From an uncultured Chloroflexota bacterium (GTDB lineage: Bacteria; Chloroflexota; Anaerolineae; Aggregatilineales; Phototrophicaceae): a stretch of 64,000 nucleotides of DNA. This document shows positions 21,107 to 40,320 of the stretch, piece after piece. The DNA lies in contig CALKIA010000187.1 in assembly GCA_937988705.1 (NCBI GenBank), positions 2,716 through 66,715 on the forward strand, in the 5' to 3' direction. How positions within the stretch are numbered: position 1 is the stretch's first letter; the number at the start of each line of letters is the position of its first letter. The notes under the pieces are model-generated. The model was not told the DNA's origin and made no database searches. It saw only the letters and a program-made list of their open reading frames with translations. Position numbers and translations under genes: made by a program.

Positions 21107-21160
21107 TGTGTCTCCCTGATCAGCGCTTGTGGCGTGGTTGTTCTGGGGTGATAGGACAGA

Positions 21161-21189
21161 TCAGGCGGTATCGTTGGGATACCGCCTGA
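21161..21189 (-). terminator. Intercistronic stem-loop after the solute-binding protein gene
   Basis: Perfect 12-bp stem TCAGGCGGTATC-N5-GATACCGCCTGA. No clear U-tract, so it may be an mRNA-stabilising hairpin rather than a terminator. Confidence 0.6.
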
Positions 21190-21213
21190 CAATTTCACAC
21201 GGTCAGTTTGAAA

Positions 21214-22617
21214 TTAGCTGCCAGCCGCCGGGTCAAGAATACCTGTCTGGAAGGCTTCGGCATTCGCCGCCATCAGCGCCGCTACGTCCGCGCTTTCGTC
21301 AGTGAGGACCGTCGTCATCACTTCGGCAATCGCGACATAGAAGTCCTGTGCGAAGGGCGGTTCTGGCACGAGCACAATTTCGCCCGCGTTGAGTGCATCA
21401 TAGAAGCCTTGATAGTTCTCGACCGGCATCGTAATAAACTGCTGATCGAAGGCATCAACCGTCGCCTGGAGCTCGCCCGTGAAGATGGGCAGCACGGGGG
21501 TACCAGCGCCAGCCTGCGTCGCATGGAAGATCGTGCGGGATGGGGCAAATTCGCCGGGGCTGAGGGTACGCCACACTTGGAAGACGATAGCGGCTTCTTG
21601 CTGGTCAGCGCTTGCGCCAGCAAACACCATCTGGTGACTTCCGCCGGTCAGCGTATAACGCATGCCATCGGGGGCTTGCGGCATTGCGCCGTAACCGAAG
21701 CGGGCAAGATCAACATCCGGCATATTGACGCGCAGCCAGCCGATACTGCCATCTGCGGGACTCATGAACATGATCGAGCGCCCATCGATGGTTTCAAATG
21801 TCGGGTTGCTGGCAAGGTCAAGCGGCAGTGCGTTTTCAGCATCGGGCCAACGCAGATCATAGAGGAATTGCATCGCTTCAACGGCTGCGCCTTCACCATA
21901 GACAGCGCTGTACGTGCCGTCGCCGTTATCGCGGATCAATTCGGTTGCGCCAAAGCCGTAGGCGAGGTTCGTGAAGTGCCAACCGCCAGCGCCACCCGAC
22001 AGGAACATGGCAAACCCGGCGACTCCGGCCGCTGGATCGGCTACTTCTTGCGCGACTGCGCCGAAGCCTTCCCATGTGGCAGGCGGGGCATCGTATCCGG
22101 CGACGCTTAGGGCGGCAATATCCCAACCGATTCCCTGTGCGTAGGAGAATTCGGGGAGGCCATAGGCGTGACCTTCGGCATCAGACAGCAGCGCCAGCAG
22201 CGTCGGATTGTAGACACCGCTCAGCCCCAATTGTTCAAACGATGCGGAGAGATCAGCGGCGACCCCTTGCGCGATCAAACGCTGAGGCTCAGTTGCCGGA
22301 ACGCCGAACAGCGTCGGCAGTGTGTCACCTGCGACCAGTGCCGCAAACGATTCGGGCGAGAAGCAGTACTGCGTCCGCTCAACAGTCACATTCGGATAGA
22401 CTTCCATGAAGCGGGCCAGCTGCGCGTCGAAATCTTGGCGCTGCTGCTCTTGATCCTCGCCGATACAAGCCGACACCGTAATCGAGACATCACGCCCTTC
22501 GGCGATGGTATCGGGCAGCGTGATCGGAAATTCTGGGAGTGTGACATCCTGTGCGGTAAGTGGTGCGATGGCGAACAGCATCAAACAGAAAACGAATACG
22601 AGGGTAAAACGCTTCAT
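21214..22617 (-). CDS. Sugar ABC transporter substrate-binding protein
   Basis: Signal peptide (LTAQD); GHAYGLP and PPATWE motifs; lies upstream of two permeases. Confidence 0.9.
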   Translation of the reverse strand: MKRFTLVFVFCLMLFAIAPLTAQDVTLPEFPITLPDTIAEGRDVSITVSACIGEDQEQQRQDFDAQLARFMEVYPNVTVERTQYCFSPESFAALVAGDTLPTLFGVPATEPQRLIAQGVAADLSASFEQLGLSGVYNPTLLALLSDAEGHAYGLPEFSYAQGIGWDIAALSVAGYDAPPATWEGFGAVAQEVADPAAGVAGFAMFLSGGAGGWHFTNLAYGFGATELIRDNGDGTYSAVYGEGAAVEAMQFLYDLRWPDAENALPLDLASNPTFETIDGRSIMFMSPADGSIGWLRVNMPDVDLARFGYGAMPQAPDGMRYTLTGGSHQMVFAGASADQQEAAIVFQVWRTLSPGEFAPSRTIFHATQAGAGTPVLPIFTGELQATVDAFDQQFITMPVENYQGFYDALNAGEIVLVPEPPFAQDFYVAIAEVMTTVLTDESADVAALMAANAEAFQTGILDPAAGS

Positions 22618-22855
22618 AATCGTTACTCCTATGTTAACGAATTTATGTTTGGGGCAGTTGTGGGAAACGAGTGTGGTTAAGAAGTAAAGCCAGAAGCAAA
22701 AAGCCCGACTCCCGAATATTGTGGTTGATCGTAGGTTCGCAATTTATAGTCGTGTCGCAGCTTAGCAGTTCCCCCTTTCAGTGAGTGCAGCATCCGGTGA
22801 CACCTGCAAACGGGAGGCTGCTTACCCTACCAAAACACTCGATCTCACAGTTTCA

Positions 22856-23836
22856 TCATAGGCTAGTGTCTTCCGTCCCGGAAGATAAAATCGTCTCACA
22901 AGCTGAACTGATTTTCTGATCTCCCCTACTGCCATCGAAAGCGCGGCGGAACTGCGAAGGCTGCATTCCAACCTGACGCAGGAATAGACGGTTGAATTCT
23001 TGCGCGCTGCTGAACCCGACCGAATAGGCAATCTGATGAATTGGCAGGTCGGTTGAACGCAGCAGGCGTTCTCCTTCGACCAAGCGCCGGGAATTACGAT
23101 ACGCGATAGGGGACGCGCCGAGCGCAGTGTTAAATAACGCGCACAGATGCGAACGGCTGACGAGCGCTGCCTGAGCCATATTATCCAGCGTCAATGGATC
23201 GGCAAACCGGCTTTCGACGAGCCGCAGCGCCGAACTAATCCGCCGGAGCGCTTCTCGGCGTTCATGATATTGGGGGGGCGTTTCCTGCTCGTGCAGCAGC
23301 CGCCGCGCCAGATGTCCCGCCGCCTGTATCAATAAGCCGCCTGTGACGATTTCCCACGCATGTTCCTGCTGTTCGGCTTCCTCCGCAATTTGATTGAGCA
23401 GGTCACGCAGGATCGGCGTGGCGGGGTCATGAAGTGGAATCATTGGACCCGACCGGTTGAAATCGAGAGTAAAGGGCAGCCATGTTTCTGAACGCATTTT
23501 CGTGATCCAGCTGTCCGTGATGATCGCCGGATGAAAATGCACGACAAACAATCCGACGGTTTCACACGAGTCGTCGGTATATGCCATATGGGGCTGTAGG
23601 TCATTGATGATGAAAACCTGTCCTGTTTGGAACTGATATTCTTCATCGCCAAAGACGAACATCCCATAGCCGGACGTGATCACGCCGATTTCATAACAAT
23701 CGTGAATGTGGCGTGCTTGTGGCGTGCTGCGATGAAGCTCACCCGGACCGAGATGAAACAAACGATCATGCTTGACGAGGTGTGTGCTGCACAGCACCGG
23801 AACATAAACGGGGGTAAGAGAACGCCAATTGATCAT
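22856..23836 (-). CDS. AraC-family transcriptional regulator
   Basis: Cupin HIHDCYEIG; C-terminal IAYSVGFSSAQEFNRLF...GMQPSQFR. Confidence 0.93.
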   Translation of the reverse strand: MINWRSLTPVYVPVLCSTHLVKHDRLFHLGPGELHRSTPQARHIHDCYEIGVITSGYGMFVFGDEEYQFQTGQVFIINDLQPHMAYTDDSCETVGLFVVHFHPAIITDSWITKMRSETWLPFTLDFNRSGPMIPLHDPATPILRDLLNQIAEEAEQQEHAWEIVTGGLLIQAAGHLARRLLHEQETPPQYHERREALRRISSALRLVESRFADPLTLDNMAQAALVSRSHLCALFNTALGASPIAYRNSRRLVEGERLLRSTDLPIHQIAYSVGFSSAQEFNRLFLRQVGMQPSQFRRAFDGSRGDQKISSACETILSSGTEDTSL

Positions 23837-24529: not shown

Positions 24530-25912
24530 ATGGCCATCGAGCTTTTTAGTGTTTCCTTGTTCGGCACAATTCTCATCTACGCGCCACTGCTGTCCCTGTC
24601 TGCTTTGATAAACCCTCGCGCGGCAGAGGCCATCACTCAAGCTTACCCGGATGCTACATCGCTCCCACCCGTTCTCTATGAGTTCGGGCAAGCTGTATTT
24701 TCCTCTGCGCCTGAGCCATCTGCCCCGCTCAACGCTCCACTCGACCCTTTCTATCTTGGCATCATTCCAACGCGCGGATGCAATATCGGCTGCAAATACT
24801 GCGATTTCGCCGCGCCCAAGCACATCAGCCCGGTGATGTCCCTTGACACAGCACAACAAGCAGTGGACGCCTACCTCACCCTGCTGAGGCAGGCGGGGCA
24901 TACCGATGGACAAATTCACTTCTTCGGGGGAGAGCCGTTTTATGCGCCCGTGCTCGTGCGCGATGTGGTTGAATACGCCGAGGCAGCGGCGCAAAAGCAC
25001 GGAATTACCTTGCGTTTTGAAGCGACGACCAACGGTGTCTTTGGCGCTGATCTGTGCCAGTGGATTGGCGATCACTTCGATGCGGTTGTTCTCTCGCTGG
25101 ATGGTTTGCGGCAAGACCATGACCGCCACCGTCCAGCACTCAACGGACGCGGAACCTTCGAGATCGTCGCCCGAACCGCACGCAGTCTCTCCGCCAGCCC
25201 ATGCGATCTCATCGTACGCGCTTGTGTCACCGCCGAGTCGGTGGCGTGTATGCCCGATTTCGCCCATTGGATTGGGGCAGAACTCAAACCGAGCATCGTC
25301 TGCTTTGAGACGCTGAGTGTCTCCCCACTCGCAGTTGAAGCCGGATTCGCCGCGCCCGATCCGCATGACTTCGCGCGCTATTTTGACCGCGCCACCGAAA
25401 TCCTGTCTACGTATGGGATTGAGACCGTGACATCTTCTGCCGATATCAGTGAAGCGCGAACGAGTTTCTGCCCGGTGAGCAAAGACGCGCTGATCGTTTC
25501 GCCGGATGGTGCGGTCGATGCGTGTTATTTGCTGGAAAGTGACTGGCAGGCACGCGGACTCGATATGCGGTTGGGGCAGCTGCAAAGCGGCACATTTGCG
25601 CTTGACTCTGCATCTTTGCGTCGCGTCCGCTCGATGCAGGTACAGAACCGCCCGCTGTGCGCCGACTGCCTGTGCCGCTTTCACTGCGCGGGCGGCTGCC
25701 ACGTTCACCACAACACCCACCGCGCACCGGGTCAATTTGACGACTGGTGCATCCAGACGCGGCTGATAACGATTACGCGGCTGCTGCGCGGTTTGGGCGA
25801 ACATGAGCGCGCCGACGCTTTTCTCGCTGACCGTTCCGCATCGGAAATAGCGGTTTGGCAACCGAGTGATCGCCTGATTACGCATCCAATCTCCCAGTCG
25901 GTACCCGAATGA
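24530..25912 (+). CDS. Radical SAM/SPASM peptide/protein maturase 1
   Basis: CNIGCKYC; FFGGEP; TTNG; SLDG. SPASM region C(PVSK)...AC...CADCLCRFHCAGGC...C. Start placed at ATG 24530 after GGAG. Confidence 0.92.
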   Translation: MAIELFSVSLFGTILIYAPLLSLSALINPRAAEAITQAYPDATSLPPVLYEFGQAVFSSAPEPSAPLNAPLDPFYLGIIPTRGCNIGCKYCDFAAPKHISPVMSLDTAQQAVDAYLTLLRQAGHTDGQIHFFGGEPFYAPVLVRDVVEYAEAAAQKHGITLRFEATTNGVFGADLCQWIGDHFDAVVLSLDGLRQDHDRHRPALNGRGTFEIVARTARSLSASPCDLIVRACVTAESVACMPDFAHWIGAELKPSIVCFETLSVSPLAVEAGFAAPDPHDFARYFDRATEILSTYGIETVTSSADISEARTSFCPVSKDALIVSPDGAVDACYLLESDWQARGLDMRLGQLQSGTFALDSASLRRVRSMQVQNRPLCADCLCRFHCAGGCHVHHNTHRAPGQFDDWCIQTRLITITRLLRGLGEHERADAFLADRSASEIAVWQPSDRLITHPISQSVPE

Positions 25913-27291
25913 GCCGAAACAGGAGTCCCAACATGAGCATGTACGTCTACACGATCCCGATTCAAGACCAGTACCTCATCTACCGACCGCTGCGTAAGTT
26001 GGCATTTGTCGGTAACCGGGCGCTCGGCACGATTTGTCAGAACATCGCGGCGGGCAAGCTCACCCGTGAGCAAGTCCCGGACTCGGTGCGTGCCTTCTTA
26101 GACGGCATCGACTTCTTCGCGGATGATCCGCCGCCGCCCACGCCGCCGGATCACGCCTTTCGACCCACCAGCGCCGTCCTGCTGATGACCAACCGCTGCA
26201 ATTTGCGCTGCACCTACTGCTACGCCAACGCCGGAGTACTCGCACCCGTCGATCTGTCGCTGGAACTGGCGCAAACCGTGATCGATCAAGTGGCGGCGAG
26301 CGCACAGGCACAGGGCGGATCGTACTTTGAACTGTGTTTTCACGGCGGCGGCGAACCGACCCAAAACTGGCAGGTCATGCAGCAGGCAACCGCCTATGCC
26401 CGCACGAAGCTGATCCCTGCGAAGGTGGTGATGGTCAGCAATGGGATATGGTCGCCCGCACAGCGCGAATGGGTGCTGACGCACATGGACGGCGTGACGA
26501 TCTCGTTTGATGGTCGCCCCTCAACGCAGGACGCGCAGCGCATTCTCCCCAATGGCGCAGGATCATCGGCGCTGGTGCTGGAGACGATCCACGCGCTTGA
26601 TGAAGCCCATTTCGATTACGGCATTCGGATGACGGCGACTGCCCCTTGGCGCGAAACGCTGCCCGCCGATGTGCGGTTCATCTGCGAGAACACGGGCTGT
26701 AAATCGCTGCAAGTCGAACCCGCGTTCAACACGGTGCGCGGCACCCACCGTGAGTCGTCGGAGGAGCAGAGTCAGGCGTTCGTTGATGCATTTATGGAAG
26801 CGTTTGAGATCGCGGCGCGTGCCGGACGCCAACTGACCTATTCCGGGGCGCGTCCCTGGTTGCTCACGATGAGCTTTTGCACCGCCCCCTACAACGCACT
26901 GATCGTCAATGCGAACCGTGAACTGGTGACCTGTTACGAGATCGCCAGTGATGCTCACGCGCTGGCAAACATCTCTACGATTGGCGCGATTGATGCCGCA
27001 GGCGAATTGACGCTCGATTCAACCCGGCGCGAGTCCCTGCTCAACCGCCTTGAAACCAAGCAGACGGATCACTGTGCCGACTGCTTCGCCCGCTATCACT
27101 GCGCGGGGGATTGCTACACACGCTCAACGAGTGTGATTGACGGGGAATTACAGGTAACAAGCGCGCGCTGCCAGATCAACCGGGCACTGACCGCTCAACT
27201 GCTGCTGTGGTACGTCATGGCAGGGGATGGCGTGTGGAACGGGCAAACAATTTTGACAATGCCAACTTCGCAACTATCAGCCATGTACTAG
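25909..27291 (+). CDS. Radical SAM/SPASM peptide/protein maturase 2
   Basis: CNLRCTYC; FHGGGEP; SNG; SFDG. SPASM region CTAP...TC...CADCFARYHCAGDC...C. ATGA overlap with the upstream gene; ATG 25933 after AGGAG is an alternative start. Confidence 0.93.
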   Translation: MSRNRSPNMSMYVYTIPIQDQYLIYRPLRKLAFVGNRALGTICQNIAAGKLTREQVPDSVRAFLDGIDFFADDPPPPTPPDHAFRPTSAVLLMTNRCNLRCTYCYANAGVLAPVDLSLELAQTVIDQVAASAQAQGGSYFELCFHGGGEPTQNWQVMQQATAYARTKLIPAKVVMVSNGIWSPAQREWVLTHMDGVTISFDGRPSTQDAQRILPNGAGSSALVLETIHALDEAHFDYGIRMTATAPWRETLPADVRFICENTGCKSLQVEPAFNTVRGTHRESSEEQSQAFVDAFMEAFEIAARAGRQLTYSGARPWLLTMSFCTAPYNALIVNANRELVTCYEIASDAHALANISTIGAIDAAGELTLDSTRRESLLNRLETKQTDHCADCFARYHCAGDCYTRSTSVIDGELQVTSARCQINRALTAQLLLWYVMAGDGVWNGQTILTMPTSQLSAMY

Positions 27292-27304
27292 AGGACTGAC
27301 AGCA

Positions 27305-28678
27305 ATGTCCGATCAAACCCATAAGCCCAATGAAGATGAGCCGCAAATCTTTGCCGTGAACAAAGGCGCGCGGGGTTGGCACTTCAATCGCCGGAACTTC
27401 CTGAAAGCGACCAGTGTCGCTGGTGCGGCGCTAACCGTAGGCGGATGTCAATCGCAGACTCCTACACCTACTAGCACATCCATGCCAACCAACACGCCGC
27501 CTCCAACCAATACGCCAATGCCAACCGGCGTGCCGCCGGCACGAGGCGCACGGGCGCATGCATCTGACGTTCAGTCAGTTGCTATCAGCGCGGATGGGAT
27601 GCTGCTCGCTTCTGGTAGCTCTGATAACACCATCAAGTTGTGGTCGCTGCCCGATGGCGCGCTACTCAACACGCTCGAAGGGCATGCATCTGAAGTTAAC
27701 TCAGTAGCCATCAGCGCAGATGGGACACTGCTCGCGTCAGGGAGTTACGATAATACCATCAAACTGTGGTCGCTGCCGGATGGCACCCTTCGCCACACGC
27801 TTGATGGGCATGCATCTATCGTTAACTCACTTGTTATCAGCGCGGATGGGATGCTACTCGCTTCTGGCAGTTCTGATAACACCATCAAGTTGTGGTCGCT
27901 GCCCGATGGAGCGCTACTCAACACGCTCGAAGGGCATACAAATTTGGTTGTGTCAGTTGCTATCAGTGCGGATAGGACGCTGCTCGCATCAGGGAGTTAC
28001 GATAATACCATCAAACTGTGGTCGCTGCCGGATGGCACCCTTCGACATACGCTTGAAGGATCTGCATCATATGTTCATTCAGTTGCAATTAGCGCGGACG
28101 GCACTCTGCTCGCATCGGCAGGGTCTGGTCAAAGTAGCGGCAGCAACGGCAACATCAAGCTGTGGTCGCTGCCAGATGGAGCACTTCTCAACACGTTTGG
28201 CGAACCTTATTCTGAAGTTCACCTACTTGCTATAAGCGCGGATAGTACTCTGCTCGCGTCAGGACGTTCCGGTGGTAGTACCATCGAGCTGTGGTCGCTG
28301 CCGGATGGCGTGATGCGTGGATTTATGTCGGACGTTTCCTTTTTTTCAGTTGACATTTTTTCAATTGCCATCAACCCGGATAATACTCTGCTCGCATCGG
28401 CGGGGAGGTCTCCCGGCGGTAGCGGTGGTAGTATCAAGTTGTGGTCGCTAGCGGACGGGACGTATCTACGTGATTTGATAGATATTGCTGTAAGTGAACC
28501 TGAATTTGAAGGAGCACAGTATTCCCCCGATGATGAAGGTAGCAGCGTAATCACCTTATCCTGTGGTTCACCTATTCCCGCCGGATCGACCTGCATCTGC
28601 AATTGCGTGACGGGCAGCGGTTGTTCCTGTGTGGGGCATCGTAGTGGCGGGGGTAGTCATTACTGGTATCCGAATTAA
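27305..28678 (+). CDS. Tat lipoprotein, 7-bladed WD40 propeller with Cys-rich HYWYPN tail (paralog 1)
   Basis: NRRNFLK; lipobox VGGC (Cys48); Pro/Thr linker; 7 WD repeats; tail CGSPIPAGSTCICNCVTGSGCSCVGHRSGGGSHYWYPN. Confidence 0.9.
   Translation: MSDQTHKPNEDEPQIFAVNKGARGWHFNRRNFLKATSVAGAALTVGGCQSQTPTPTSTSMPTNTPPPTNTPMPTGVPPARGARAHASDVQSVAISADGMLLASGSSDNTIKLWSLPDGALLNTLEGHASEVNSVAISADGTLLASGSYDNTIKLWSLPDGTLRHTLDGHASIVNSLVISADGMLLASGSSDNTIKLWSLPDGALLNTLEGHTNLVVSVAISADRTLLASGSYDNTIKLWSLPDGTLRHTLEGSASYVHSVAISADGTLLASAGSGQSSGSNGNIKLWSLPDGALLNTFGEPYSEVHLLAISADSTLLASGRSGGSTIELWSLPDGVMRGFMSDVSFFSVDIFSIAINPDNTLLASAGRSPGGSGGSIKLWSLADGTYLRDLIDIAVSEPEFEGAQYSPDDEGSSVITLSCGSPIPAGSTCICNCVTGSGCSCVGHRSGGGSHYWYPN
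27557..28060 (+). repeat. Four near-identical 126-bp WD40 coding repeats in A-B-A-B pattern
   Basis: Units start at 27557, 27683, 27809 and 27935. Units 1/3 and 2/4 are the closest pairs (252-bp period). Confidence 0.9.
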
Positions 28679-28697
28679 CTGAGAAAGTGCAGCGAAC

Positions 28698-29996
28698 GTG
28701 ACTGAGGAAAGTTTCAACCCTAATCAGAACGAAGACGAACCACAAGTGTACGCCGTGAACAAAGGCGCGCAGGGCTGGCAGTTCAATCGCCGGGATTTCC
28801 TGAAAGCGGCAGGGGTCGCGGGTGCGGCGGGCGCGATAGGGAGTGCCACATCACCGGCGCACGCCCAAGCCGGCGATGGCACTGCGCTGACTCCTGCCGA
28901 CCCGCCGCCTTTGGGCACGCGCGCTCACCGGCTCGGAGTCACTTCAATTGCTCTCAGCGGAGATGGAACGCTGCTCGTATCAGCGAGCAGCGATCAGACA
29001 TTCAAACTGTGGACATTGCCAGATGCTGCCCTCATTCGCACCCTCGATCGACATTTAGGTAGCGTTACCGCTGTGGCCATCAGTGAGGATGGGACATTGC
29101 TCGCGTCCGGCGGCGATTTCATGGATCGAACTATTCGTTTATGGTCGTTGCCAGATGCCGATTATCGCCGCACGCTGCGGTCAGGCCCTGCGCAAGCCAT
29201 CAAGATCAGTCCGGATGGCACCCTGCTCGTCGTAGCTGATGCGGATCATGCTATCCAGTTGCGATCACTGCCGACTGGCGAACTTCTGAATACATTGGAA
29301 GGTCACCGAGACCTGATTTATTCGCTCGCGATCAGTCCGGATGGAAGATTGCTCGCTTCGGGCGCAAGAGACAACACGGTCAAGCTGTGGTCACTGCCAG
29401 ACGGTGAACTCCTCCAGACCCTCGAAGGGCATACTGATGGAATAAAAGCCGTCGCGATCAGCGCTGATGGTCGGTTGCTTGCTTCCGGGAGTGAGGACGC
29501 TACGATCAGGTTATGGACACTGCCCGAAGGAACGCTGCTACGCACGATCAACAATCAATATAATCTTGAATCCCTAGCAATCAGTCCGGATAGTAGCCTG
29601 CTGGCCGTGGCGAGTTGGGATCGTACGGTCAAATTGTGGTCACTGCCGGATGGCATACTCGGCAATACGCTGCAAGGGCACTCTGACGTTGTCAGTTCCG
29701 TCGCGATCAGCGCCGATGGGACTCTGCTCGCCTCTGGAAGCTGGAATGGTACGCTCAAGTTGTGGTCACTGCCAGATGGAGTGTATCTGCGGGAATTTAT
29801 CGACATTGCCGCTAGTGGCCCTGAATTCGAAGGGGTGCAGTATTCCCCCCACGACGAAGGCGCCAGTGTTATCACGTTGCCTTGCGGTTCGCCGATTCCC
29901 GCAGGATCGACCTGTATCTGTAACTGTGTGACGGGGAGTTCCTGTTCTTGTGTCGGATTTAGCGGCGGTAGCGGTCACTACTGGTATCCGAACTAG
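28698..29996 (+). CDS. Tat-exported 7-bladed WD40 propeller with Cys-rich HYWYPN tail (paralog 2)
   Basis: NRRDFLK; AHA|Q SPase I site; 7 WD repeats; tail CGSPIPAGSTCICNCVTGSSCSCVGFSGGSGHYWYPN. Confidence 0.9.
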   Translation: MTEESFNPNQNEDEPQVYAVNKGAQGWQFNRRDFLKAAGVAGAAGAIGSATSPAHAQAGDGTALTPADPPPLGTRAHRLGVTSIALSGDGTLLVSASSDQTFKLWTLPDAALIRTLDRHLGSVTAVAISEDGTLLASGGDFMDRTIRLWSLPDADYRRTLRSGPAQAIKISPDGTLLVVADADHAIQLRSLPTGELLNTLEGHRDLIYSLAISPDGRLLASGARDNTVKLWSLPDGELLQTLEGHTDGIKAVAISADGRLLASGSEDATIRLWTLPEGTLLRTINNQYNLESLAISPDSSLLAVASWDRTVKLWSLPDGILGNTLQGHSDVVSSVAISADGTLLASGSWNGTLKLWSLPDGVYLREFIDIAASGPEFEGVQYSPHDEGASVITLPCGSPIPAGSTCICNCVTGSSCSCVGFSGGSGHYWYPN

Positions 29997-30020
29997 TATA
30001 TTCACATTGAGGATAAGCTC

Positions 30021-31361
30021 ATGACCGACGAAACACACAAACCCGAACACGGCGAAGACGAACCCCAAGTCTACGCTGTGAACAAAAGCTCACAAGGCTG
30101 GCACTTCAACCGGCGCAGCTTTCTGAAAGCTGCGGGAACATCCGCCGCCGGTATGGTCGCGCTGAGTGCATGCAGCACGACACCAGTTCCCACACCAACC
30201 ACTTCGCCCATACCACGCCCGACCAATACTTCACCGCCTACGGTTGACCCAGCCACAACCGAAGGGGTGGCCCATAAGGCAACCATCAATGCGACCGTGC
30301 TTAGCCCGGACGGCAAACTCTTGGCATCGCACTGCTCGGACAGCAGGGATAGGTCGCTCAAGGTCTGGAATACAGCCGACAAGCAGCTTTTGCTAGTGTG
30401 GGAGGATGAGGCGGAATCTCTGCGAGCTTCACCTGGTCCAGTGGTATTCACACCGGATGGCAATGTCCTGATTGCTGGCGCGCACCGTTGGTCATTGTCC
30501 AATTTTACCGTGATCGATGTGATCCCCAACCTAGGCGGCAGTGAATATGCGATCAGCCCCGATGGGACACTCCTCGCGGCGGGTAATGATAATGCTCTGA
30601 TCAACCTGTGGGATCTGAACGCCATGACGGTTCGTAAGATTCTCAGCGGACACCGAGAATACATCGGCGATCTTGTCATCACGCCCGATAGCTCGCGGCT
30701 AATTTCGAGCGATGGGGCGGGACAGATTAGGTTGTGGAGCTTGCCCGATGGGGAACTCCTTGCGGAGATCGAAGCGGACACGATGAGCGTTTCGGCTCTG
30801 GCGATCAGTCCAGATGGCCTGTATTGTGCATCGGGGGCAGGGAGTGGGAACATAAAACTGTGGCGTGTAGCGGATTTGACACTTATTCGCGACATCGCCA
30901 ATGATGGTGGTTGGGTCCACGCGCTCACCTTCAACGCAGACGGAACTCTGTTGGTATCAGGTGATAATGGGGGGATCCGTTTCTGGACACTACCCGATGG
31001 CGGTCTCTCCAATACTGTCGGCTTTAGGAGCGCTGTGCAATCGTTGGTGCTTAGCCCAGATAGCTCTTGGATGATTTCGGGACACGCATCTACAGTGGGT
31101 GGTACCGGCATCATCCGACAGTGGACACTGCCCGATGCCCAGCCCGCCGGTTACTACATCGACATTGCTGCCAACGATCCAGCCTTTGCTGGTGTACAGT
31201 ATTCACCAAATGACAACGGTGCGGGTGTGGTTACGCTGCCGTGCGGTTCACCAATTCCAACTGGATCAACCTGCATATGCAATTGTGTAGCGGGAAGTAG
31301 CTGCACTTGTGTGGGGCATCGTAGCAGCGGTGGCGGCGGACACTACTGGTATCCGAACTAA
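30021..31361 (+). CDS. Tat lipoprotein, 7-bladed WD40 propeller with Cys-rich HYWYPN tail (paralog 3)
   Basis: NRRSFLK; lipobox LSAC (Cys51); Pro/Thr linker; 7 diverged WD repeats; tail CGSPIPTGSTCICNCVAGSSCTCVGHRSSGGGGHYWYPN. Confidence 0.9.
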   Translation: MTDETHKPEHGEDEPQVYAVNKSSQGWHFNRRSFLKAAGTSAAGMVALSACSTTPVPTPTTSPIPRPTNTSPPTVDPATTEGVAHKATINATVLSPDGKLLASHCSDSRDRSLKVWNTADKQLLLVWEDEAESLRASPGPVVFTPDGNVLIAGAHRWSLSNFTVIDVIPNLGGSEYAISPDGTLLAAGNDNALINLWDLNAMTVRKILSGHREYIGDLVITPDSSRLISSDGAGQIRLWSLPDGELLAEIEADTMSVSALAISPDGLYCASGAGSGNIKLWRVADLTLIRDIANDGGWVHALTFNADGTLLVSGDNGGIRFWTLPDGGLSNTVGFRSAVQSLVLSPDSSWMISGHASTVGGTGIIRQWTLPDAQPAGYYIDIAANDPAFAGVQYSPNDNGAGVVTLPCGSPIPTGSTCICNCVAGSSCTCVGHRSSGGGGHYWYPN

Positions 31362-31376
31362 CGGAGGAGGACGCCC

Positions 31377-31814
31377 ATGCGTCAGTACAGTCGCCGCCAG
31401 TTCTTCCCGATGCTCGTGCAGGAATTGATCGTCAACGTCCAGCAGGTGCGGCAGGGGAAGCCCGCTTATACGCTGGAAAACCTCGGCGATTTGCCCGATG
31501 ACAAGCTGGCGGTCATCCGCCCGATGATCAGCCCGCTGTACAGAATCCGCGTGGTCGATGGACAGGTGTGCAGTCAGTTCAAAGACGATGCCGACGCGCC
31601 CGTGCGTCCGCATTTCCCCACCACACCGGAATATCTGGCGGCGTTCAATCGCTTCAACGGTCGGCAGTCGCTCCAAGAGATCGCAGGAGCGGTTGCCGCG
31701 GAATTTGTCTGGGAGACGGACGCTGCGTTCCGTTTCACGCGCGATTTGTTTCTTGCGCTGGCGGCGCAGGGTGTTGTCGTCCCGCAAAATCCGCTGGATA
31801 CCGACCTTGAATAA
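31377..31814 (+). CDS. Stand-alone PqqD/RRE-like protein
   Basis: GGAGGAGG RBS. The C-terminal half FNRFNGRQSLQEIAGAVAAEF...TRDLFLALAAQGVV follows the PqqD pattern (..DG..T..EI...L..EF......DV..FL..L...G). N-terminal SRRQFF. Confidence 0.65.
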   Translation: MRQYSRRQFFPMLVQELIVNVQQVRQGKPAYTLENLGDLPDDKLAVIRPMISPLYRIRVVDGQVCSQFKDDADAPVRPHFPTTPEYLAAFNRFNGRQSLQEIAGAVAAEFVWETDAAFRFTRDLFLALAAQGVVVPQNPLDTDLE

Positions 31815-31960
31815 CAATGCGCTTACATCGATGAAAACACGCGGGTTCACCGTAGTGCTTCACAGCGGCAGCGTGGCGAGTTTGTCATAAGATCAGTTGG
31901 AACAGACGCTCGATATCACCTATTAACGCAGTGATGACGTACTAAGCAGGAGTTGTGAGG

Positions 31961-32890
31961 ATGCCTCAAGTGTTTCTCAGCTACCGACGGAGCGACTCAG
32001 CAGGCCATGCTGGACGGATCTATGATCATCTAGGCAGGCGACTGGGAAAAGATGCGCTATTTATGGACATAGATAGCATCAAGCCCGGCGAAGATTTTGC
32101 GCAGACAATTGAAAAGGCCATTGTCTCCTGCGAGGTTGTCCTTGTGCTAATTGGGCCACATTGGCTATCTGCCTCTGATGGACTTGGCAATCGACGCCTT
32201 GATAATCCCGACGATCCAGTCAGACTAGAGATCATGATGGCACTCCGCCACAAGCTTTGGGTGATTCCGCTTCTGCTGGATAACACAAGCATGCCTTCTC
32301 CAGCGGATTTTCCTTCCGATCTGACCCCCTTTCTGCTGCGTAATGCCCTTGAGATTTCCAATGAGCGTTTCGAGTACGACATCGAACGGCTCGTAACTAC
32401 ACTACTTGAATCTCAATCTCTTGCAGGACTCAGGCGATCGCTTCGTTTGTCCTCCGTATCCGAACAGCGTAGGTTTCGGCGTAATTGGATGATTGTGACG
32501 TTGTTAGCAAGTGTTTGGTGTCTCGTTACATTGATTTTGTATTGGAGTGCTAACACAAATCCGCCTGATAACTTCCTCACTTCGCTTACGTGGGCGGTTG
32601 TCCTACCGATCACTTACGCTGGATTAACCGCATTTTCGCCGATAACACCCCTTGACGCAGGGTTTTGGGCATTTGGGGTGCATGTCGTCTATGCCGGCTT
32701 GATATGGGGGACCGATGCCTATCGTGAGTACATAGGCGTACTTGAAACCACGCAAGAACTGAGTCTACTCAATCTTGCAGTTTACGGCGGGTTCATCCTT
32801 ATCCCGTCCATACTGGTTGGTCTAGTAATTAGCCTTATCAGTTGGGTATGCCATCGCAGAAATCGAAATCCGCCGCTTCATAGCACTTGA
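31961..32890 (+). CDS. TIR-domain protein with C-terminal transmembrane helices
   Basis: VFLSYRRSDS, FMDIDSIKPGEDF, LVLIGPHW, DDPVRLEI (catalytic Glu position) and VIPLLL motifs; about 4 hydrophobic helices after residue ~175. GTG 31955 is an alternative start. Confidence 0.88.
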   Translation: MPQVFLSYRRSDSAGHAGRIYDHLGRRLGKDALFMDIDSIKPGEDFAQTIEKAIVSCEVVLVLIGPHWLSASDGLGNRRLDNPDDPVRLEIMMALRHKLWVIPLLLDNTSMPSPADFPSDLTPFLLRNALEISNERFEYDIERLVTTLLESQSLAGLRRSLRLSSVSEQRRFRRNWMIVTLLASVWCLVTLILYWSANTNPPDNFLTSLTWAVVLPITYAGLTAFSPITPLDAGFWAFGVHVVYAGLIWGTDAYREYIGVLETTQELSLLNLAVYGGFILIPSILVGLVISLISWVCHRRNRNPPLHST

Positions 32891-32971
32891 TCAGGCCCGA
32901 TTTCGAGCGTGTGTAGGCATGAAGAAGCGAGCAGATACTCAAAGATAGAAGTTCATATAGGTATCACTTGA

Positions 32972-34369
32972 ATGTTGATCTTGAACAACAATGCGCCATC
33001 GTCCACGCTCACGTCAATCCTCACGGGTGATCTGCCGGTTTTCGGGCAGACCACCGCCGAGTACACGCTGCTCTATGCGTCGGGGTGCGTGGTCGCCGCC
33101 GCCCCTGACGCGGCGGAGTCGATGATTCAGGCGTTAAGAAAGAGTGTACCGTCGCCGGGTTGGGGCGATACACTGCGTCGTCATGCCGTTCAAGCTGTGC
33201 AGCGCATGGATCAGCAGATACACGCCCCGTTCGCGCCGGAGTGCCTGACGCTCTATCTGCACAACCAGTGCAATCTGGCGTGCGCCTACTGCTACACCGA
33301 TCCCGATCACCTAGCGGGTGAGCGTTTGCAGCCCGAAGCGATTGCATCGGCGGCGACGCTGGTTGCGGAAAACTGCCGCGCCAAAGGACTGCCGCTCACG
33401 GTAGTGTTTCACGGCGGCGGAGAACCGAGTCTGTTTCAGGATCAGGTGGAACAGGCACTCGCCCTCGTTGATGAGGCGGCACGCCGTCACGGACTGCGGC
33501 AGTTCCGCTACATTGCCACCAACGGAATCATGCCGGAAACGAAAGTGCGCTGGTTAGCCGACCGCTTTGACCTGATCGGGCTGTCATGCGATGGCACGCC
33601 CGATATTCAGGATCGCCAGCGTCCGCGTCATGGCGGCGGCGGAACATCCGCCGCGATGGAACGGACGGCGCGCGGTCTACGAGATATCGGCAAGCCATTT
33701 CATATCCGCGTGACGATCACCCGTGCATCAATGCGCCGCCAAGCCGAAATCGCCGCTTATCTATGTCAAGTGCTTGCGCCGGACGAAATCCATTTTGAGC
33801 CAGTCTACTACGGCGGCAAAACGAACGGCGCTTCGGCGCTCGTGGAAGTCGAAGCTCGGGCATTCGTGGAGGAATTTCTTGCCGCACAGACGATCGCGCA
33901 GCAGCACGGCATTTCGCTCACCTGCTCCGGCAGTCGCGTTAACGCCATTCACGGCGCATACTGTCATGTCTTCCGGCAGGTTTTGAACCTCGTCCCGTCG
34001 GGGACGGCGACCGCGTGTTTCAAGCTGACGCGGCGCGAACAGCTTGAGCGGCACAACGCGCAGATCGGGGATTTCAGCAGCGAAGCTGGTTTCATGCTCG
34101 ATCAGCGCCAGATTTCAGACTTGCGCGAACAACTTGGCGCGCTGCCTGATGCTTGCATAGACTGTTTCAATCGCTTCCACTGTACCCGTTCCTGTCCGGA
34201 TGAGTGCCTCCTATCCGGTTCCGTTGATGCGCAGTCGAGTTTTCGCTGTCAGGTGCAGCAGCTTCTCGCCTACCGGCGCGTTCGCGCTGCCGCCGATGAG
34301 GTGTGGTCGCAGCGACGCGGAGAATCGATTGTCGGAGTCCACCTTGACCACGCTGAAGGAGTATCATAA
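32972..34369 (+). CDS. Radical SAM/SPASM peptide/protein maturase 3
   Basis: CNLACAYC; FHGGGEP; ATNG; SCDG. SPASM region CHVF...AC...CIDCFNRFHCTRSCPDEC...C. Confidence 0.92.
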   Translation: MLILNNNAPSSTLTSILTGDLPVFGQTTAEYTLLYASGCVVAAAPDAAESMIQALRKSVPSPGWGDTLRRHAVQAVQRMDQQIHAPFAPECLTLYLHNQCNLACAYCYTDPDHLAGERLQPEAIASAATLVAENCRAKGLPLTVVFHGGGEPSLFQDQVEQALALVDEAARRHGLRQFRYIATNGIMPETKVRWLADRFDLIGLSCDGTPDIQDRQRPRHGGGGTSAAMERTARGLRDIGKPFHIRVTITRASMRRQAEIAAYLCQVLAPDEIHFEPVYYGGKTNGASALVEVEARAFVEEFLAAQTIAQQHGISLTCSGSRVNAIHGAYCHVFRQVLNLVPSGTATACFKLTRREQLERHNAQIGDFSSEAGFMLDQRQISDLREQLGALPDACIDCFNRFHCTRSCPDECLLSGSVDAQSSFRCQVQQLLAYRRVRAAADEVWSQRRGESIVGVHLDHAEGVS

Positions 34370-35703
34370 TGCTGCTCTCCTCCTTTGATGAATACTTCCA
34401 AAACACCTCTCCGCTGCTCGATCTCGCGCCAGTGCGCGACTCGTGGCTGGCGCTTACACCTACCTATCAGGCTGGCGATTGGATTCTGCCACTTCCCCCT
34501 TGGCGGCATCGCCCTTATTCCAATTCCGGCGAACAGGCGTGGACGATTCTGCGCCGCGATCTCGCGCGAGCAGCTACCGACAAGCCGTTTTGTATCTATC
34601 TCCATGCGCCGTTCTGTTCTGCCAAATGCGGCTTTTGCGATAATTACTCTTTCAAGTTGGGCAATCAGCAGCAGGAACACATCACCGCCTACGTGGATCA
34701 ATTGTGCGCCGAACTGCGCTTGTGGAGTCAGCAGGGGAATCTCAGCCAGCGCCCGGTATCGACCGTTCACATGGGCGGCGGCACACCAACGTTTTTAGGG
34801 GCTGCGGCTCTGGAACAAATCGCGGCGTGCTGCCGCGAGTGTTTCGCCATTTCTGACGAAACTGAATGGGCGCTCGAATCGACTGCGCACGATCTGACAC
34901 CGGAGGTGATCGCCACGATGCATCAGATCGGCTATCGCCGGTTGCACATCGGCGTGCAAACGCTTGAGGATGCGGTGCGTGCGGCAATCGGACGGCGCTC
35001 ACGCGCTGGCGATGTGCTGAACAAGATTGAGTCGGTGTTGGCGCTCGGTTGGGTAGTCAGCGTGGATTTGATCTGCGGGCTGCCGGGGCAGACACTCGAT
35101 GGTTTCTTAGCCGGTATCGACCATCTGATCCGCATAGGCGTTCACGGTTTCTCCCTCTATGAACTGCTCGTCTACCCGCAGAATCAACGCTGGGCGGCGC
35201 GACATGGACTAGTTGATCCGGATCGCCATCAGCTAAATTTCTGGATGTTTCTCGCGGGGGCGCATCTCTTAGAACAGCGCGGATTCAAGAAAAATCTCTT
35301 TAACCATTGGGCAAATGAACAAGATAAAAACATCTACTTCACTTTCCCGACACGGAACGAAGATCTGTTGGCGATAGGCACCATTGCTGATGGCATATTT
35401 GGCGATTACCGCTATCGTCATCCGCGCTATGCGGACTATCTGCGTTCTGCTTCCGCCACCTCACCGGGGCTAGAAGGTGGGTTGTTGCACAATGCTTACG
35501 AAAAACGCCTTTCTCCATATGTTACGGATTTACTCTCCGCCCGTGGTAGTACGCGCTTTGCAGCGATGGTTCCCCAGCTGATGGAGATTTGGCACCAACA
35601 TGGATTGATCACATTGCAAGAGTCCGGCGCATTTGACCTTACACCATCAGGCTCATGGTTTACCGGCAACATGATCGACGAAGTTTATCAGCAGATCAGG
35701 TGA
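34369..35703 (+). CDS. HemN-like radical SAM enzyme (possible class C methyltransferase)
   Basis: IYLHAPFCSAKCGFC, HMGGGTPTFL, IGVQTL, VDLICGLPGQT and SLYEL motifs. Translationally coupled (TAATG) to maturase 3. Confidence 0.85.
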   Translation: MLLSSFDEYFQNTSPLLDLAPVRDSWLALTPTYQAGDWILPLPPWRHRPYSNSGEQAWTILRRDLARAATDKPFCIYLHAPFCSAKCGFCDNYSFKLGNQQQEHITAYVDQLCAELRLWSQQGNLSQRPVSTVHMGGGTPTFLGAAALEQIAACCRECFAISDETEWALESTAHDLTPEVIATMHQIGYRRLHIGVQTLEDAVRAAIGRRSRAGDVLNKIESVLALGWVVSVDLICGLPGQTLDGFLAGIDHLIRIGVHGFSLYELLVYPQNQRWAARHGLVDPDRHQLNFWMFLAGAHLLEQRGFKKNLFNHWANEQDKNIYFTFPTRNEDLLAIGTIADGIFGDYRYRHPRYADYLRSASATSPGLEGGLLHNAYEKRLSPYVTDLLSARGSTRFAAMVPQLMEIWHQHGLITLQESGAFDLTPSGSWFTGNMIDEVYQQIR

Positions 35704-35743: not shown

Positions 35744-36078
35744 TGTATGGTGCGAAAACCCTATCCATTCTCATGTATTCTCGACCAAAACCCGATCTCC
35801 TCTGGTAAGATAGCGCCTTTCATCGCTCGAATTGGTCACTGCTCTTCATGTTCTGGCACTCCCTTTATCAACTCCTTGCCTTCCTACTCGATATGGTACG
35901 CATTGTGCGGCAACCGCTCGATCAGAAAGACCTCGAAATCCTATTCCTGCGCCAGCAACTCGCCGTTGTTCGCCGTCGGCAGAAACGTGCACCTGGCGCG
36001 ACATCTTGCACGGTCTCATCCACGATTTTCGCCGCGTCGCTTAGCTTTCCCGTGCGGATATGGTTTTCGCACCCTACA
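35744..36078 (+). mobile_element. 335-bp internally deleted IS481-like element (MITE) with both TIRs
   Basis: TIRs TGTATGGTGCGAAAACCCTATCC and reverse complement TGTAGGGTGCGAAAACCATATCC (21/23). Contains only the transposase N-terminus (QKDLEILFLRQQL) and C-terminus (DILHGLIHDFRRVA). Confidence 0.8.
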
Positions 36079-36173
36079 CGGGATGGCTTATGCGATCCAG
36101 TCGGAGGAAGTACTCGACATGATGCGGCGTTACGATGTGTTGCCAGTGTAGTGCTATATAAGGAAGCGAAAAC

Positions 36174-36233
36174 CCGTTCACGCCCTTCACCCCCTTCACT
36201 TCTTCCCTCAGGATTTGTGAACGGTGTGAACGG
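36174..36233. repeat. Inverted array of 9-bp-period units (CCSTTCAC x3 / GTGAACGG x2)
   Basis: CCGTTCAC-G-CCCTTCAC-C-CCCTTCAC ... GTGAACGG-T-GTGAACGG. Confidence 0.6.
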
Positions 36234-36299
36234 TTCAGGGTCGGAAGAGATTCAGCGCTCTACTAACTCTAGAGATATTTTGCCGTTCCTATCGGAATG

Positions 36300-36363
36300 A
36301 CTTCAGCAATACGATCGCATCTCTGCCTGATTTCTCGCGTGGATAAAGTTTTCATCTACCACA
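36300..36363 (+). mobile_element. Orphan right end of the same IS family
   Basis: LQQYDRISA-stop followed by GGATAAAGTTTTCATCTACCACA. Confidence 0.45.
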
Positions 36364-36485
36364 GGTATTTCGATCCTATATGATCTCGCTGTGAAATGGC
36401 GCAAACCAGTCTGGTGTGATTCTGAGTTGAGAGTTTTCTCGCACGAAAAATGGGATTACGTCAAGCGGTGCATTAACTTCGACCC

Positions 36486-37714
36486 TGTATGGTGGAAAAA
36501 CTCTGTCTGACACCGACTATGCCTCAACTAGAAGGGAAGAACGTGCTATGCTTCTCTCCTGTTATTCGATATCGGAGAAGTGATTCCCTTACCAATGGTC
36601 TATCACTTCCTATTGTACTTGACTACGCTCATCTTCGACCTGTTTGCGTCCATCCGCCTTGCACCTGATGAGAAAGACCTGCAGATTGCGCTCCTCCAGC
36701 AGCAACTCCGCGTGCTGAAGCGCAAAGTCAAGAAGAAACCACGTCTCTCGCGACCTGCGAAGTTGATGCTTATGGCCTTGACGACCCATATGCAGCGCCA
36801 AACGCAGCAGTGGCAGCAGCGTTTGCGCGAAGCCGTGTGACCGGTTCAACCTGAAACGGTGCTGAACTGGCATCGAGAGCTGGTGCGTCGGGAATGGGCT
36901 TTTCGGCGACCAAACCATGGAGGACGGCCAAAGCTGGATGGCGAGATCGAGGCGCTGATCGTGCGGAATGTGCGCGAGAACCGCGCATGGGGTACGACAA
37001 AATCCAAGGCGAGTTGTTGAAATTCGGTTTCGTCGTCGATCCAACGACTGTCAAGAACGTCCTGCGCCGCCATCATCTCCTGCCCGCGCCCCAACGCGGT
37101 CAGGGTTCGTGGCGGACGTTTCTGAACCACTATCGACAGCAGCTGCTCGCGTGCGATTTCTTCACCGTCGAAACGCTGCATCGGCAAACGGTGTATGTCC
37201 TCTTCTTCATCGAGCTGGGAACTCGCCGTGTTCAGGTCGTCGGTTGTACCGAACATCCCACTTCCGCTTGGGTCACGCAACAAGCCCGGCAACTCTGTTG
37301 GTCGGTCGAAGGGCGCCAGCCAACGGTGCGTTATCTCCTTCATGATCACGATACCAAATTTCCTGCCTCCTTCGATCAGGTATTTGCTGCCCAGCAGATC
37401 GACGTCATCCACACTCCCATTCGAGCCCCGAATGCCAATGCGTTTGCCGAACGCTGAGTGCGTTCAGTTCGTCAAGAGTGTCTTGACCATCTGCTGATTT
37501 TGAATCAGCGGCATCTTGTCCATGTCCTCACCGAATACATCGACTATTACAATGTGCCTCGTCCTCATCAAGGACTCGATCAGCAAGCGCCTATTGCCAT
37601 ACCACGATCTCCGCAAGGAGTCATCCGATGCCGCGATGTTCTCGGAGGTGTTTTGCACGATTATTACGGCGAGGCTGCTTGAATTCCCCTCGGGTAAGGT
37701 TTTTCCACCTTTCA
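36486..37714 (+). mobile_element. IS481-like rve-integrase element, copy A (inactive)
   Basis: Left TIR TGTATGGTGGAAAAAC; right TIR GTTTTTCCACCTTTCA; transposase pseudogene inside. Confidence 0.8.
36595..37682 (+). pseudogene. Integrase-core (rve) transposase pseudogene A
   Basis: LACDFFTVE, HDHDTKF, NAFAER and RPHQG motifs. Stop at 36838-36840, a 1-bp deletion near 36980, and TGA at 37455-37457. Confidence 0.85.
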
Positions 37715-38112: not shown

Positions 38113-38967
38113 TTATCCTATTCGAGGAGGTTTGTTGCGCTGGCGGGTCAACAGTAAATATGCATCCTCCAACGTTGCATCGACGCTTACAGCCTCCAGA
38201 TGAGATGGGCGCTTGAGGGAGCGGACGATGCAGTAATCTCCCTGTGGGGTGATGCGAACAATCGATTCTGGCATTGTTAGCCGTGACAATTGCTCAATAG
38301 GTAGTCGAAGTTCATAAATCTGTCCGGCAGCTGCGGCACACAGCGTCTCGATGTCGCCAGCGTACAAAATATGACCGTCCTGCAGAATGATGACAGTCTG
38401 AGCCAGTCGTTCCGCCTCTTCGGGGAGATGTGTGCTAAAAATCGTCAATCCACTGTATTTCTTCACTAGACGATGGACGTTCTCTCGTTCCGTGACATCT
38501 AAACCGCGACTGAGCTCATCCAGCAGCAGCAGGCGGGGCTGGTTGAGCAGCGCTTGCGCGATCCCCACACGGCGCATTTGCCCGCTGGAAAGCTGGCGGA
38601 AGGGGTGATCTGCGAGGTCATCTAAATGCAGTGCGGCTAACACGCTTGCCGGGCTGCCGCCTCGCAGTCGAGCGAGATAGGTCAGGAGTTTGCGCGGTGT
38701 CAGGGCGGCGGGCAGTTCTACATCTTGCGGCAAGTAACCGATCTGCGTCCGCAGCGCGCGCTGATCGTGCCCGTAGTGCTGCCCCTCAAAGGACAATTCG
38801 CCGGCATCCGGCTGACACAACGTTGCCAATACCCGCAGCAGCGTCGATTTTCCTGACCCATTCGCCCCCAATAGGGCAACCACCCCGTCCGACAAGGTGA
38901 AGCTCACGTCTTGAAGTGCAACTTGTGAGCCATAGCGTTTACTCAGATTGCGGACGATCAGTGCCAT
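38113..38967 (-). CDS. ABC transporter ATP-binding protein (copy 1)
   Basis: GANGSGKS, LSSGQ, LLLLDE and STH motifs. Confidence 0.92.
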   Translation of the reverse strand: MALIVRNLSKRYGSQVALQDVSFTLSDGVVALLGANGSGKSTLLRVLATLCQPDAGELSFEGQHYGHDQRALRTQIGYLPQDVELPAALTPRKLLTYLARLRGGSPASVLAALHLDDLADHPFRQLSSGQMRRVGIAQALLNQPRLLLLDELSRGLDVTERENVHRLVKKYSGLTIFSTHLPEEAERLAQTVIILQDGHILYAGDIETLCAAAAGQIYELRLPIEQLSRLTMPESIVRITPQGDYCIVRSLKRPSHLEAVSVDATLEDAYLLLTRQRNKPPRIG

Positions 38968-39791: not shown

Positions 39792-40320
39792 GGATCACCT
39801 CGGTGAGCGCTAAAAAACCTTTCATCTGCTTCAGGGCATGGAACAGGCGGCTTTTCACCGTGCCGACCGGCGTGTGCGTCACATCCGCGATTTCGTCCAG
39901 CTTCAGATCATGGTAGAAACGCAAAATCAGCACCTCGCGGTGATCGGGCGACAATTTTGCCAGCGCCTGAATGACCGTTTCCCGATCATGGGCGGCAAAA
40001 CCAGTGTCATCGGAAAAAACCTCCGCCTGTTCCTCAAAATCAGCGGCACGCTCGTAACGGTAGCGAGCGGACTTGAAATAGTCGCGTGCCAGATTCCGCG
40101 CCACAGTATAGGCCCATGACTTGAAGTGTGTCGGCGGCACGCCTTGATAGGTGAGCAGGCGTGTAAACGTTTCTTGCGTCAAATCGTCGGCCAGCGCCAC
40201 ATCACCGGTAAAACGACACAAGAACTTGTATAGAGGAACGTGATAACGCTGGACCAATTCGATGAGTGCGGCCTCATTCCCGTGAAGCACCTGTCGATAC
40301 AGCGTTTCATCGTCCAACAT
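39784..40320 (-). CDS. ECF RNA polymerase sigma factor (copy 1)
   Basis: ADDLTQETF, SWAYTVARNLARD and EIADVTHTPVGTVKSRLFHA motifs; GGAGGGG RBS before ATG 40320. Confidence 0.93.
   Translation of the reverse strand: MLDDETLYRQVLHGNEAALIELVQRYHVPLYKFLCRFTGDVALADDLTQETFTRLLTYQGVPPTHFKSWAYTVARNLARDYFKSARYRYERAADFEEQAEVFSDDTGFAAHDRETVIQALAKLSPDHREVLILRFYHDLKLDEIADVTHTPVGTVKSRLFHALKQMKGFLALTEVIHD

Follow-up and report, generated by a model that had tools for sequence, protein, structure and literature searches.

The stretch of DNA analysed here (the window, 64,000 nt of the Chloroflexota contig CALKIA010000187.1) holds a cluster of nine open reading frames (ORFs) at 24530..35703. All nine are co-oriented on the + strand, and the gaps between them, in gene order, are -4, 13, 19, 24, 15, 140, 81 and -1 nt. 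They encode four radical S-adenosylmethionine (SAM) enzymes, three WD40 propeller proteins with a shared C-terminal tail, a putative RiPP recognition element (RRE; RiPP, a peptide made by ribosomes and modified post-translationally) and a TIR-transmembrane protein. An earlier note on this DNA had described nine tightly spaced genes with four radical SAM enzymes, no short precursor ORF and no protease. This description held. Three of the enzymes carry CxxxCxxC and a seven-Cys SPASM pattern, the fourth being HemN-like; neither the flanks nor the gaps of the cluster showed a short precursor-like ORF, and no protease is encoded among the nine genes. The features are as follows.

24530..25912, + strand: rSAM1, a radical SAM/SPASM enzyme; accessory, found only alongside an H-Y-W-x-P-N tip (the longest ORF starts at 24497)
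25909..27291, + strand: rSAM2, a CteB-like radical SAM/SPASM enzyme; core partner for all types of tail and likely Cys thioether synthase
27305..28678, + strand: WD1 precursor, 457 aa; leader 27332-27385, twin-arginine translocation (Tat) motif 27386, lipobox Cys48; seven-bladed WD40 propeller 27554-28477; tail 28478-28675
28698..29996, + strand: WD2 precursor, 432 aa; leader 28731-28784, Tat motif 28785, no lipobox; WD40 propeller 28923-29798; tail 29799-29993, with module A to 29930, a CxC unit at 29943-29960 and the tip at 29976-29993
30021..31361, + strand: WD3 precursor, 446 aa; leader 30054-30107, Tat motif 30108, lipobox Cys51; WD40 propeller 30270-31157; tail 31158-31358
31377..31814, + strand: stand-alone RRE (PqqD-like, 145 aa) with an extra N-terminal helix; found only alongside an aromatic tip
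31955..32890, + strand: TIR-transmembrane protein; a passenger insertion, not a conserved component
32972..34369, + strand: rSAM3, a radical SAM/SPASM enzyme of the accessory set; several relatives have it fused to the HemN-like enzyme
34369..35703, + strand: HemN-like radical SAM enzyme (class C type); tracks the His of the tip

The three WD40 proteins appear to be Tat substrates, as the earlier note had claimed. Each passed Tat model TIGR01409 (25.1, 32.6 and 17.9 bits against a cut-off of 16.7), all three have an RRxFLK motif and a hydrophobic stretch, and TatC is encoded in the host genome. A lipobox was recognized by eye in 2/3, WD1 and WD3; these two are probably lipid-anchored and WD2 released. 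The terminal regions are 72-85% identical among the three and the propellers 35-57% (57% between WD1 and WD2), so the propellers are as divergent as had been claimed and the ends less than "nearly identical". About 55% of the codons at identical residues differ in the tail, the same as in the propellers. Recent gene conversion was therefore rejected as the cause of the conserved ends, which are attributed to selection. A six-frame scan of the genome found the tail motif only in WD1-3. The AlphaFold2 model of WD2 (predicted local distance difference test score, pLDDT, 86.9) has a seven-bladed propeller, a leader hairpin at residues 19-30 and a small tail domain of three strands; the tip follows a Gly-rich linker, and disorder is predicted for the last 14 residues. 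A fold search with this model returned propellers only. One 1597-bp contig (P0001) agrees with WD1 in the tail (100%) and, as judged by eye, in much of the propeller, yet its leader is different; it is either a recombinant between paralogs or an assembly chimera.

A profile of ten tails was run against 1.84 billion representatives at E≤0.001. It matched 552, of which the best 150 were examined. The tail has three modules. Module A reads T-L-P-C-G-x-P-I-P-x-G-A-x-C-x-C-N-C-V and is sometimes repeated, module B consists of 0-10 further C-x-C units, and module C, the tip, is H-Y-W-[YHF]-P-[NCD] at the C-terminus. C-x-C is invariant and repeated, and His or Asp often comes next. Scans of the proteins with Pfam and NCBIfam yielded no model for the tail family, PDB sequences gave one match (E 0.21), and the Atlas gave no feature match and template modelling (TM) scores of 0.40 at most. 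In viral contigs there were 44 matches to the tail pattern, none of them confirmed.

Two Cys residues of module A stand apart. In 202 distinct modules, Cys1 and Cys4 were both present in 188, both absent in 14 and discordant in none, and the CxC between them is invariant. Such perfect covariation suggests a disulfide, and it is quite probable that Cys396 and Cys410 (WD2 numbering) form one after export. Relatives show a second covarying pair, which closes the propeller (78 both, 35 neither, 11 discordant) and fits a location outside the cytoplasm; it is absent from the window proteins. The claim that the tail is the modified core is supported with a refinement: not all of its Cys look like thioether donors.

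The domain between leader and tail is exchangeable. Among 70 complete precursors in related loci, 12 had no match to the window propeller. Pfam identified SH3_3, NBR1 Ig-like and ConA-like domains as other cargoes, and in some precursors a Pro/Thr linker is all there is. Leader and tail persist where the cargo changes or is absent. The earlier note had read the WD40 proteins as precursors laid out as leader, propeller and core; this layout is supported, with the propeller as one exchangeable cargo that can be missing. The precursors are Tat proteins of 130-1300 aa, well beyond the short precursors of ranthipeptides, and 74/145 carry a lipobox. One 130-aa precursor (L045:5228-5656) has the leader, the Tat signal and modules A-C with no cargo. 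In a 40-aa remnant (L009:5117-5425) the leader is joined almost directly to the tip.

Some tip-less tails continue into another domain. An S74 chaperone directly follows the last CxC unit in 12/46 tip-less tails by motif count, and Pfam confirmed it in 8/8 tested; WD1-3 lack it. S74 secures trimerisation and then cuts itself off (PMC10769870). The presence of this trimer chaperone in tip-less relatives hints that mature tails can be trimeric; a trimeric tip is possible, although we would not bet on it. Eight tip-less tails run instead into an unnamed helical domain. In L049, L053, L054, L073, L088, L094 and L105 this domain stands in the place of S74, starts with C-Q-A-H and has no Pfam name.

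Co-occurrence of tails and enzymes was scored in 30 loci from genome contigs and the best 77 of 285 confirmed metagenome stretches (107 loci, near-duplicates counted separately). Module C is present in 64 loci and missing from 38; 4 loci were cut off and 1 was mixed, and these 5 were excluded. rSAM2 lies beside the tail in 27/31 loci with at least 3 kb on both flanks, namely 13/13 tip-less and 14/18 tip-bearing loci. The four loci without it come from two genomes, each with a full cluster elsewhere. When five genomes with orphan tails were checked for distant enzymes, rSAM2 was found in 5/5 and the RRE in 4/5: three had a full cluster, one had the enzymes on separate contigs, and in one there were only rSAM2 and a precursor next to a transposase. 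In 400 genomes drawn evenly from the phylum the tail occurred in 2, in both adjoining the sole rSAM2 matches at E<1e-150. Four weaker rSAM2 matches (E 1e-76 to 1e-94) had no tail, and the two of these that were inspected lay in other contexts. By these counts tail homologs do not mostly lie apart from radical SAM genes, the outcome that the earlier note had named as refuting. The system is rare per genome, with 0/60 relatives of the host carrying the tail, yet it is spread over many phyla: Chloroflexota, Acidobacteriota, Planctomycetota, Bacteroidota, Myxococcota, Thermodesulfobacteriota and Pseudomonadota. A partial copy is carried by a Candidatus Chlorohelix allophototropha plasmid.

At its smallest, the system consists of rSAM2 and one tail protein, as in all 13 well-flanked tip-less loci. 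The usual full cluster comprises rSAM1, a second RRE, rSAM5, (a U32-like protein), one or more precursors, rSAM2, (rSAM6), the RRE, rSAM3 and the HemN-like enzyme. The second RRE is an ORF of ~90 aa found in 19/19 gaps examined; against Pfam PqqD, 1/11 scored above the cut-off, 1/11 weakly and 9/11 not at all. This PqqD-like protein is the sole conserved small ORF found in the related clusters, so the absence of a separate conserved precursor peptide is borne out there too. The U32-like protein is separate from rSAM5 or fused to it (L017:6791-8818, L120:3338-4264, L121:13953-14876; Pfam U32 at E 0.015 in 1/3) and is a possible Fe-S hydroxylase for the tip. Some clusters add YcaO or a PMT_2-type glycosyltransferase; L090:15281-16954, L083:8703-10682 and L092:11097-13118 are examples in clusters that have no HemN-like gene. 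Some full clusters also hold a conserved unnamed protein of ~300 aa with the motif S-W-W-S-N-C-L (L014:13984-14862, L110:1875-2777, L090:14346-15284, L084:3324-4277), for which the one member tested had no Pfam match. The plasmid copy (L130:8773-15822, NZ_CP128402.1) has rSAM1, the small RRE, rSAM5, two precursors, rSAM2 and the RRE, and is cut by IS21. Its precursors share one leader and carry a WD40 cargo and an unnamed cargo. In L127:8123-13368, a more distant rSAM2 relative has as neighbours an ATPase-TPR protein and a second SPASM enzyme, whose C-terminal extension is rich in Tyr, Trp and Glu; this is another system.

Enzyme content follows the tail sequence. The accessory genes (rSAM1, rSAM3, RRE, HemN) occur in 42/64 tip-bearing and 0/38 tip-less loci, a difference that rests on about two independent joint losses, so that Fisher values overstate it: in a quick tree of rSAM2, one clade of 18, nested among tip-bearing loci, and one separate case account for the tip-less loci. 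With 3-kb flanks the counts are 13/18 and 0/13. The leader consensus also differs between the two types. A second correlation concerns the His of the tip. Where the HemN-like gene is present, 21/22 loci hold a precursor with a His tip, and where rSAM1 and rSAM3 occur without it, 0/6 loci (4 distinct clusters) do, having Ser or Thr instead; the background is 122/135 tails with His. About three independent losses underlie this link, and as they come from metagenome contigs, HemN could be encoded elsewhere. One-carbon addition to sp2 centres by class C enzymes (PMC12871812) makes the His imidazole a fitting target. Whether the HemN-like enzyme adds a carbon there is, by this analogy, about an even bet. 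The literature search turned up no class C enzyme that acts on a protein-tail His among the matches listed.

The three SPASM enzymes share the CxxxCxxC motif and complete seven-Cys SPASM pattern of ranthipeptide maturases. Their best NCBIfam models are the PapB, QhpD and SCIFF maturases, all far under their cut-offs: PapB model NF047865 gave 121, 108 and 83 bits against 340, TIGR03974 gave 109, 79 and 55 bits against 425, and the QhpD model TIGR03906 gave 112 bits at best against 453. With the CrpC model TIGR04463 (cut-off 525), rSAM1 scored 51.4 and rSAM3 32.2 bits, and rSAM2 fell outside the best 25 matches. The best PDB match of all three was CteB 5WGG (rSAM1 E 1e-22, rSAM2 E 1e-14, rSAM3 E 8e-12). 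The rSAM2 alignment pairs all seven SPASM Cys and begins only at residue 49; rSAM2 has a conserved N-terminal extension of ~85 residues. The HemN-like enzyme carries CxxxCxxC, matches 1OLT (E 2e-21) and NocN 9P2U (E 3e-17), and lies under the cut-off of every named subfamily (HutW 211/400 bits).

The PqqD-like gene was borne out by its fold only. The 145-aa ORF had no match in Pfam or NCBIfam, Pfam PqqD included. Its Atlas model has a TM score of 0.74 to PqqD, and its AlphaFold2 model has TM scores by target of 0.72-0.76 to TbiB1 and lasso B1. Foldseek E values were 2e-3 to 8e-3, with no match at E≤1e-3. The predicted models show three strands and three helices in the winged-helix arrangement of an RRE. 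The protein opens with S-R-R-x-F-F (31377-31450), a motif partly kept in homologs; it lacks a hydrophobic signal stretch and is a Tat-signal look-alike.

These results suggest a protein-scale RiPP pathway that modifies a surface-displayed tail, with the WD40 proteins as its precursors. We give this reading a probability of about 0.75. Since tail genes sit beside the same radical SAM enzymes across many phyla, the tail is likely cross-linked in the cell before export, with separate enzymes predicted for the Cys repeats and the aromatic tip. The leader before the twin-arginine signal would be bound in the cytoplasm by the RRE domains, rSAM2 would cross-link the Cys-x-Cys units as thioethers, and modification of the terminal H-Y-W-Y-P-N would fall to rSAM1, rSAM3, the stand-alone RRE and the HemN-like enzyme. 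The folded, modified protein would then be exported by Tat and either lipid-anchored (WD1, WD3) or set free (WD2), the module A disulfide forming outside. The pathway would thereby yield a surface protein with a rigid modified tip, its middle domain (WD40, SH3, Ig-like or none) giving binding or reach. The firmest of these proposals is that the tail is the enzyme substrate, of which we are fairly confident. That rSAM2 makes Cys-to-carbon thioethers, presumably short rings to residue i+3 like those of CrpC, is probable. Action of the accessory set on the aromatic tip, probably aromatic cross-links made by rSAM1 and rSAM3, is favoured by a smaller margin. More tentatively, the system might be a portable surface-protein tag in which up to six radical SAM enzymes arm any cargo between leader and tail. 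The tip would be thioether-stapled and possibly three-chain, and would end in a His-Tyr-Trp-Tyr cage, cross-linked and C-methylated, that acts as adhesin tip, covalent anchor or metal site; a class C enzyme would C-methylate a protein His. This fuller picture is less likely than not.

The closest known system is CrpC/CrpA of Methanococcus voltae, in which CrpC installs ranthionines on a 29-kDa protein (PMC13692751, 2026). Both have a seven-Cys SPASM enzyme, an RRE and a substrate the size of a protein, conserved at its N-terminus and with Cys motifs repeated in its C-terminal part, and the adjacent large protein with repeated Cys motif and common N-terminus that marks TIGR04463 is present here. 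CrpC forms short rings at motifs containing Val, Asp or Met (PMC13692751). It belongs to another enzyme family and works as one enzyme rather than the four to six found here, and the sections consulted mention no Tat signal, no folded cargo between leader and core and no aromatic tip. The maturases CteB/SCIFF and PapB/freyrasin share the SPASM Cys spacing and are the best sequence and PDB matches of rSAM1-3; they differ in acting on short peptides, and the acceptor here is mostly not Asp. The HemN-like enzyme resembles the class C methylases NosN/NocN, TbtI and C10P in fold match and in one-carbon transfer to an sp2 carbon (PMC12871812), whereas its proposed target is a His on a protein tail. 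S74-matured trimeric fibres such as phage spikes and Bdellovibrio MAT adhesins (PMC10769870) resemble the S74-bearing tip-less relatives; the window proteins lack S74, and trimeric tails are only putative. No description of the tail system was found in the literature searched, which did not cover subscription journals, and the homolog list in the supplement of PMC13692751 could include such proteins. The earlier note, which did not recognise the architecture as a characterised system, agrees with this. The system is real, widespread and apparently unpublished, a variant of protein-scale RiPP modification.

Other explanations of the same cluster were weighed. The tail could be a metal-binding module, with free Cys-x-Cys thiolates in metallothionein-like or three-chain sites that the radical SAM proteins build or load. 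The invariant, repeated CxC with its frequent His or Asp neighbour would suit this, Tat is established as a carrier of cofactor-loaded proteins, and S74 fusions imply three chains side by side. However, RREs and CteB-like SPASM enzymes have peptides as their substrates, the CxC units are free to vary in number, and no metal transport or cluster-assembly gene recurs among the annotated neighbours. We consider it unlikely, although an overlap with tail modification is possible, some Cys being modified and others binding metal. A slightly poorer candidate is a small diffusible RiPP, cleaved from the tail after export, with the propeller as carrier only. The Gly-rich linker, the disordered last 14 residues and the cargo-less precursors would allow it; against it, no protease gene is present among the nine or was seen recurring in the annotated related clusters, about half of the precursors have a lipobox, S74 fusions would be trimmed behind the tail, which would stay on the cargo, and the cargoes are diverse binding domains.

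In quinohemoprotein amine dehydrogenase (QHNDH), QhpD puts radical SAM thioethers on exported QhpC, beside a beta-propeller. A quinoprotein like QHNDH or methylamine dehydrogenase, in which Trp, Tyr and Cys of the tail become a redox cofactor that folds into the propeller, would draw on the propeller, the Cys-rich chain, the conserved Trp and the QhpD-like matches. The propeller, however, is fused to the substrate and can be replaced by SH3, Ig-like domains or nothing, its faces are not conserved, the nine genes include no heme or quinoprotein subunit, cytochrome or flavin oxygenase, and 38 loci lack the Trp tip, which makes this very improbable. The least probable explanation, in which a separate short peptide or small molecule is the substrate and the WD40 genes are mere neighbours, could appeal to short ORFs being easily missed and to four to six radical SAM enzymes being many for one 65-residue tail, but it is hard to reconcile with the two-gene minimal unit, with enzyme content that follows the tail and with a PqqD-like protein as the sole conserved small ORF.

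Several points weigh against tail modification as proposed. The chemistry cannot be read from family membership because all four enzymes score far below every curated cut-off, and while gene order, motifs, the RRE fold, co-occurrence and exchangeable cargo are shown by sequence, every chemical step is inferred. An N-terminal RRE on rSAM2 was not confirmed: a profile comparison with the stand-alone RRE gave a probability of 0.1%. At the third position after the first Cys, most units have Val (320/588) rather than the Asp of PapB substrates, and module A is predicted to be folded (pLDDT 81-92) and may shield its CxC. The few independent losses behind both correlations count here as well, as does L057 (1.8 kb), where HemN lies beside a His-less tip. 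Tip-bearing precursors also occur with an incomplete set of enzymes and adjoining transposases, in L030 and on the Chlorohelix plasmid. The window copy itself may be only partly functional, since it lacks the second RRE and the fifth radical SAM enzyme usual in full clusters; profiles of the second RRE, rSAM5, U32-like protein and rSAM6 had no match in the window's 88% complete genome.

RiPP enzymes normally act on short peptides. Here leader and core are split by a whole folded domain that is freely swapped in nature and the product has an export signal, which would, if true, offer a ready-made means of installing radical chemistry on proteins of the surface. For three to five uncharacterised radical SAM families there would be a predicted division of labour that can be tested gene by gene. 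The two-gene form (rSAM2 and precursor) is the simplest assay, and the target residues are named by the correlations with the His and with the tip.

The TIR-transmembrane gene, counted as a cluster member in the earlier note, was rejected as a system component. Its GC content (0.50) is below that of its surroundings and it had no homolog in 112 related loci; it is therefore regarded as a passenger. DNA contigs of runs X1-X3 match the window piecewise and bridge the RRE-TIR and TIR-rSAM3 junctions; the best-matching run is possibly the window's own source, so this is not independent. No RNA run with window sequence was among those listed, and a promoter and terminator scan was uninformative (7 and 6 sites, against 7.4 and 11.1 in shuffled sequence). 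Directly 3' of the cluster, at 35848-37682, lie broken pieces of IS481/IS3-like transposases. Because of these pieces and the absence of the tail from the 60 host relatives, the cluster looks horizontally acquired. The flanking genes are ordinary by eye: a sugar ABC transporter, a glycoside hydrolase and an AraC regulator at 16757-23836, and an extracytoplasmic function (ECF) sigma factor, an anti-sigma factor and an ABC transporter at 38113-43019.

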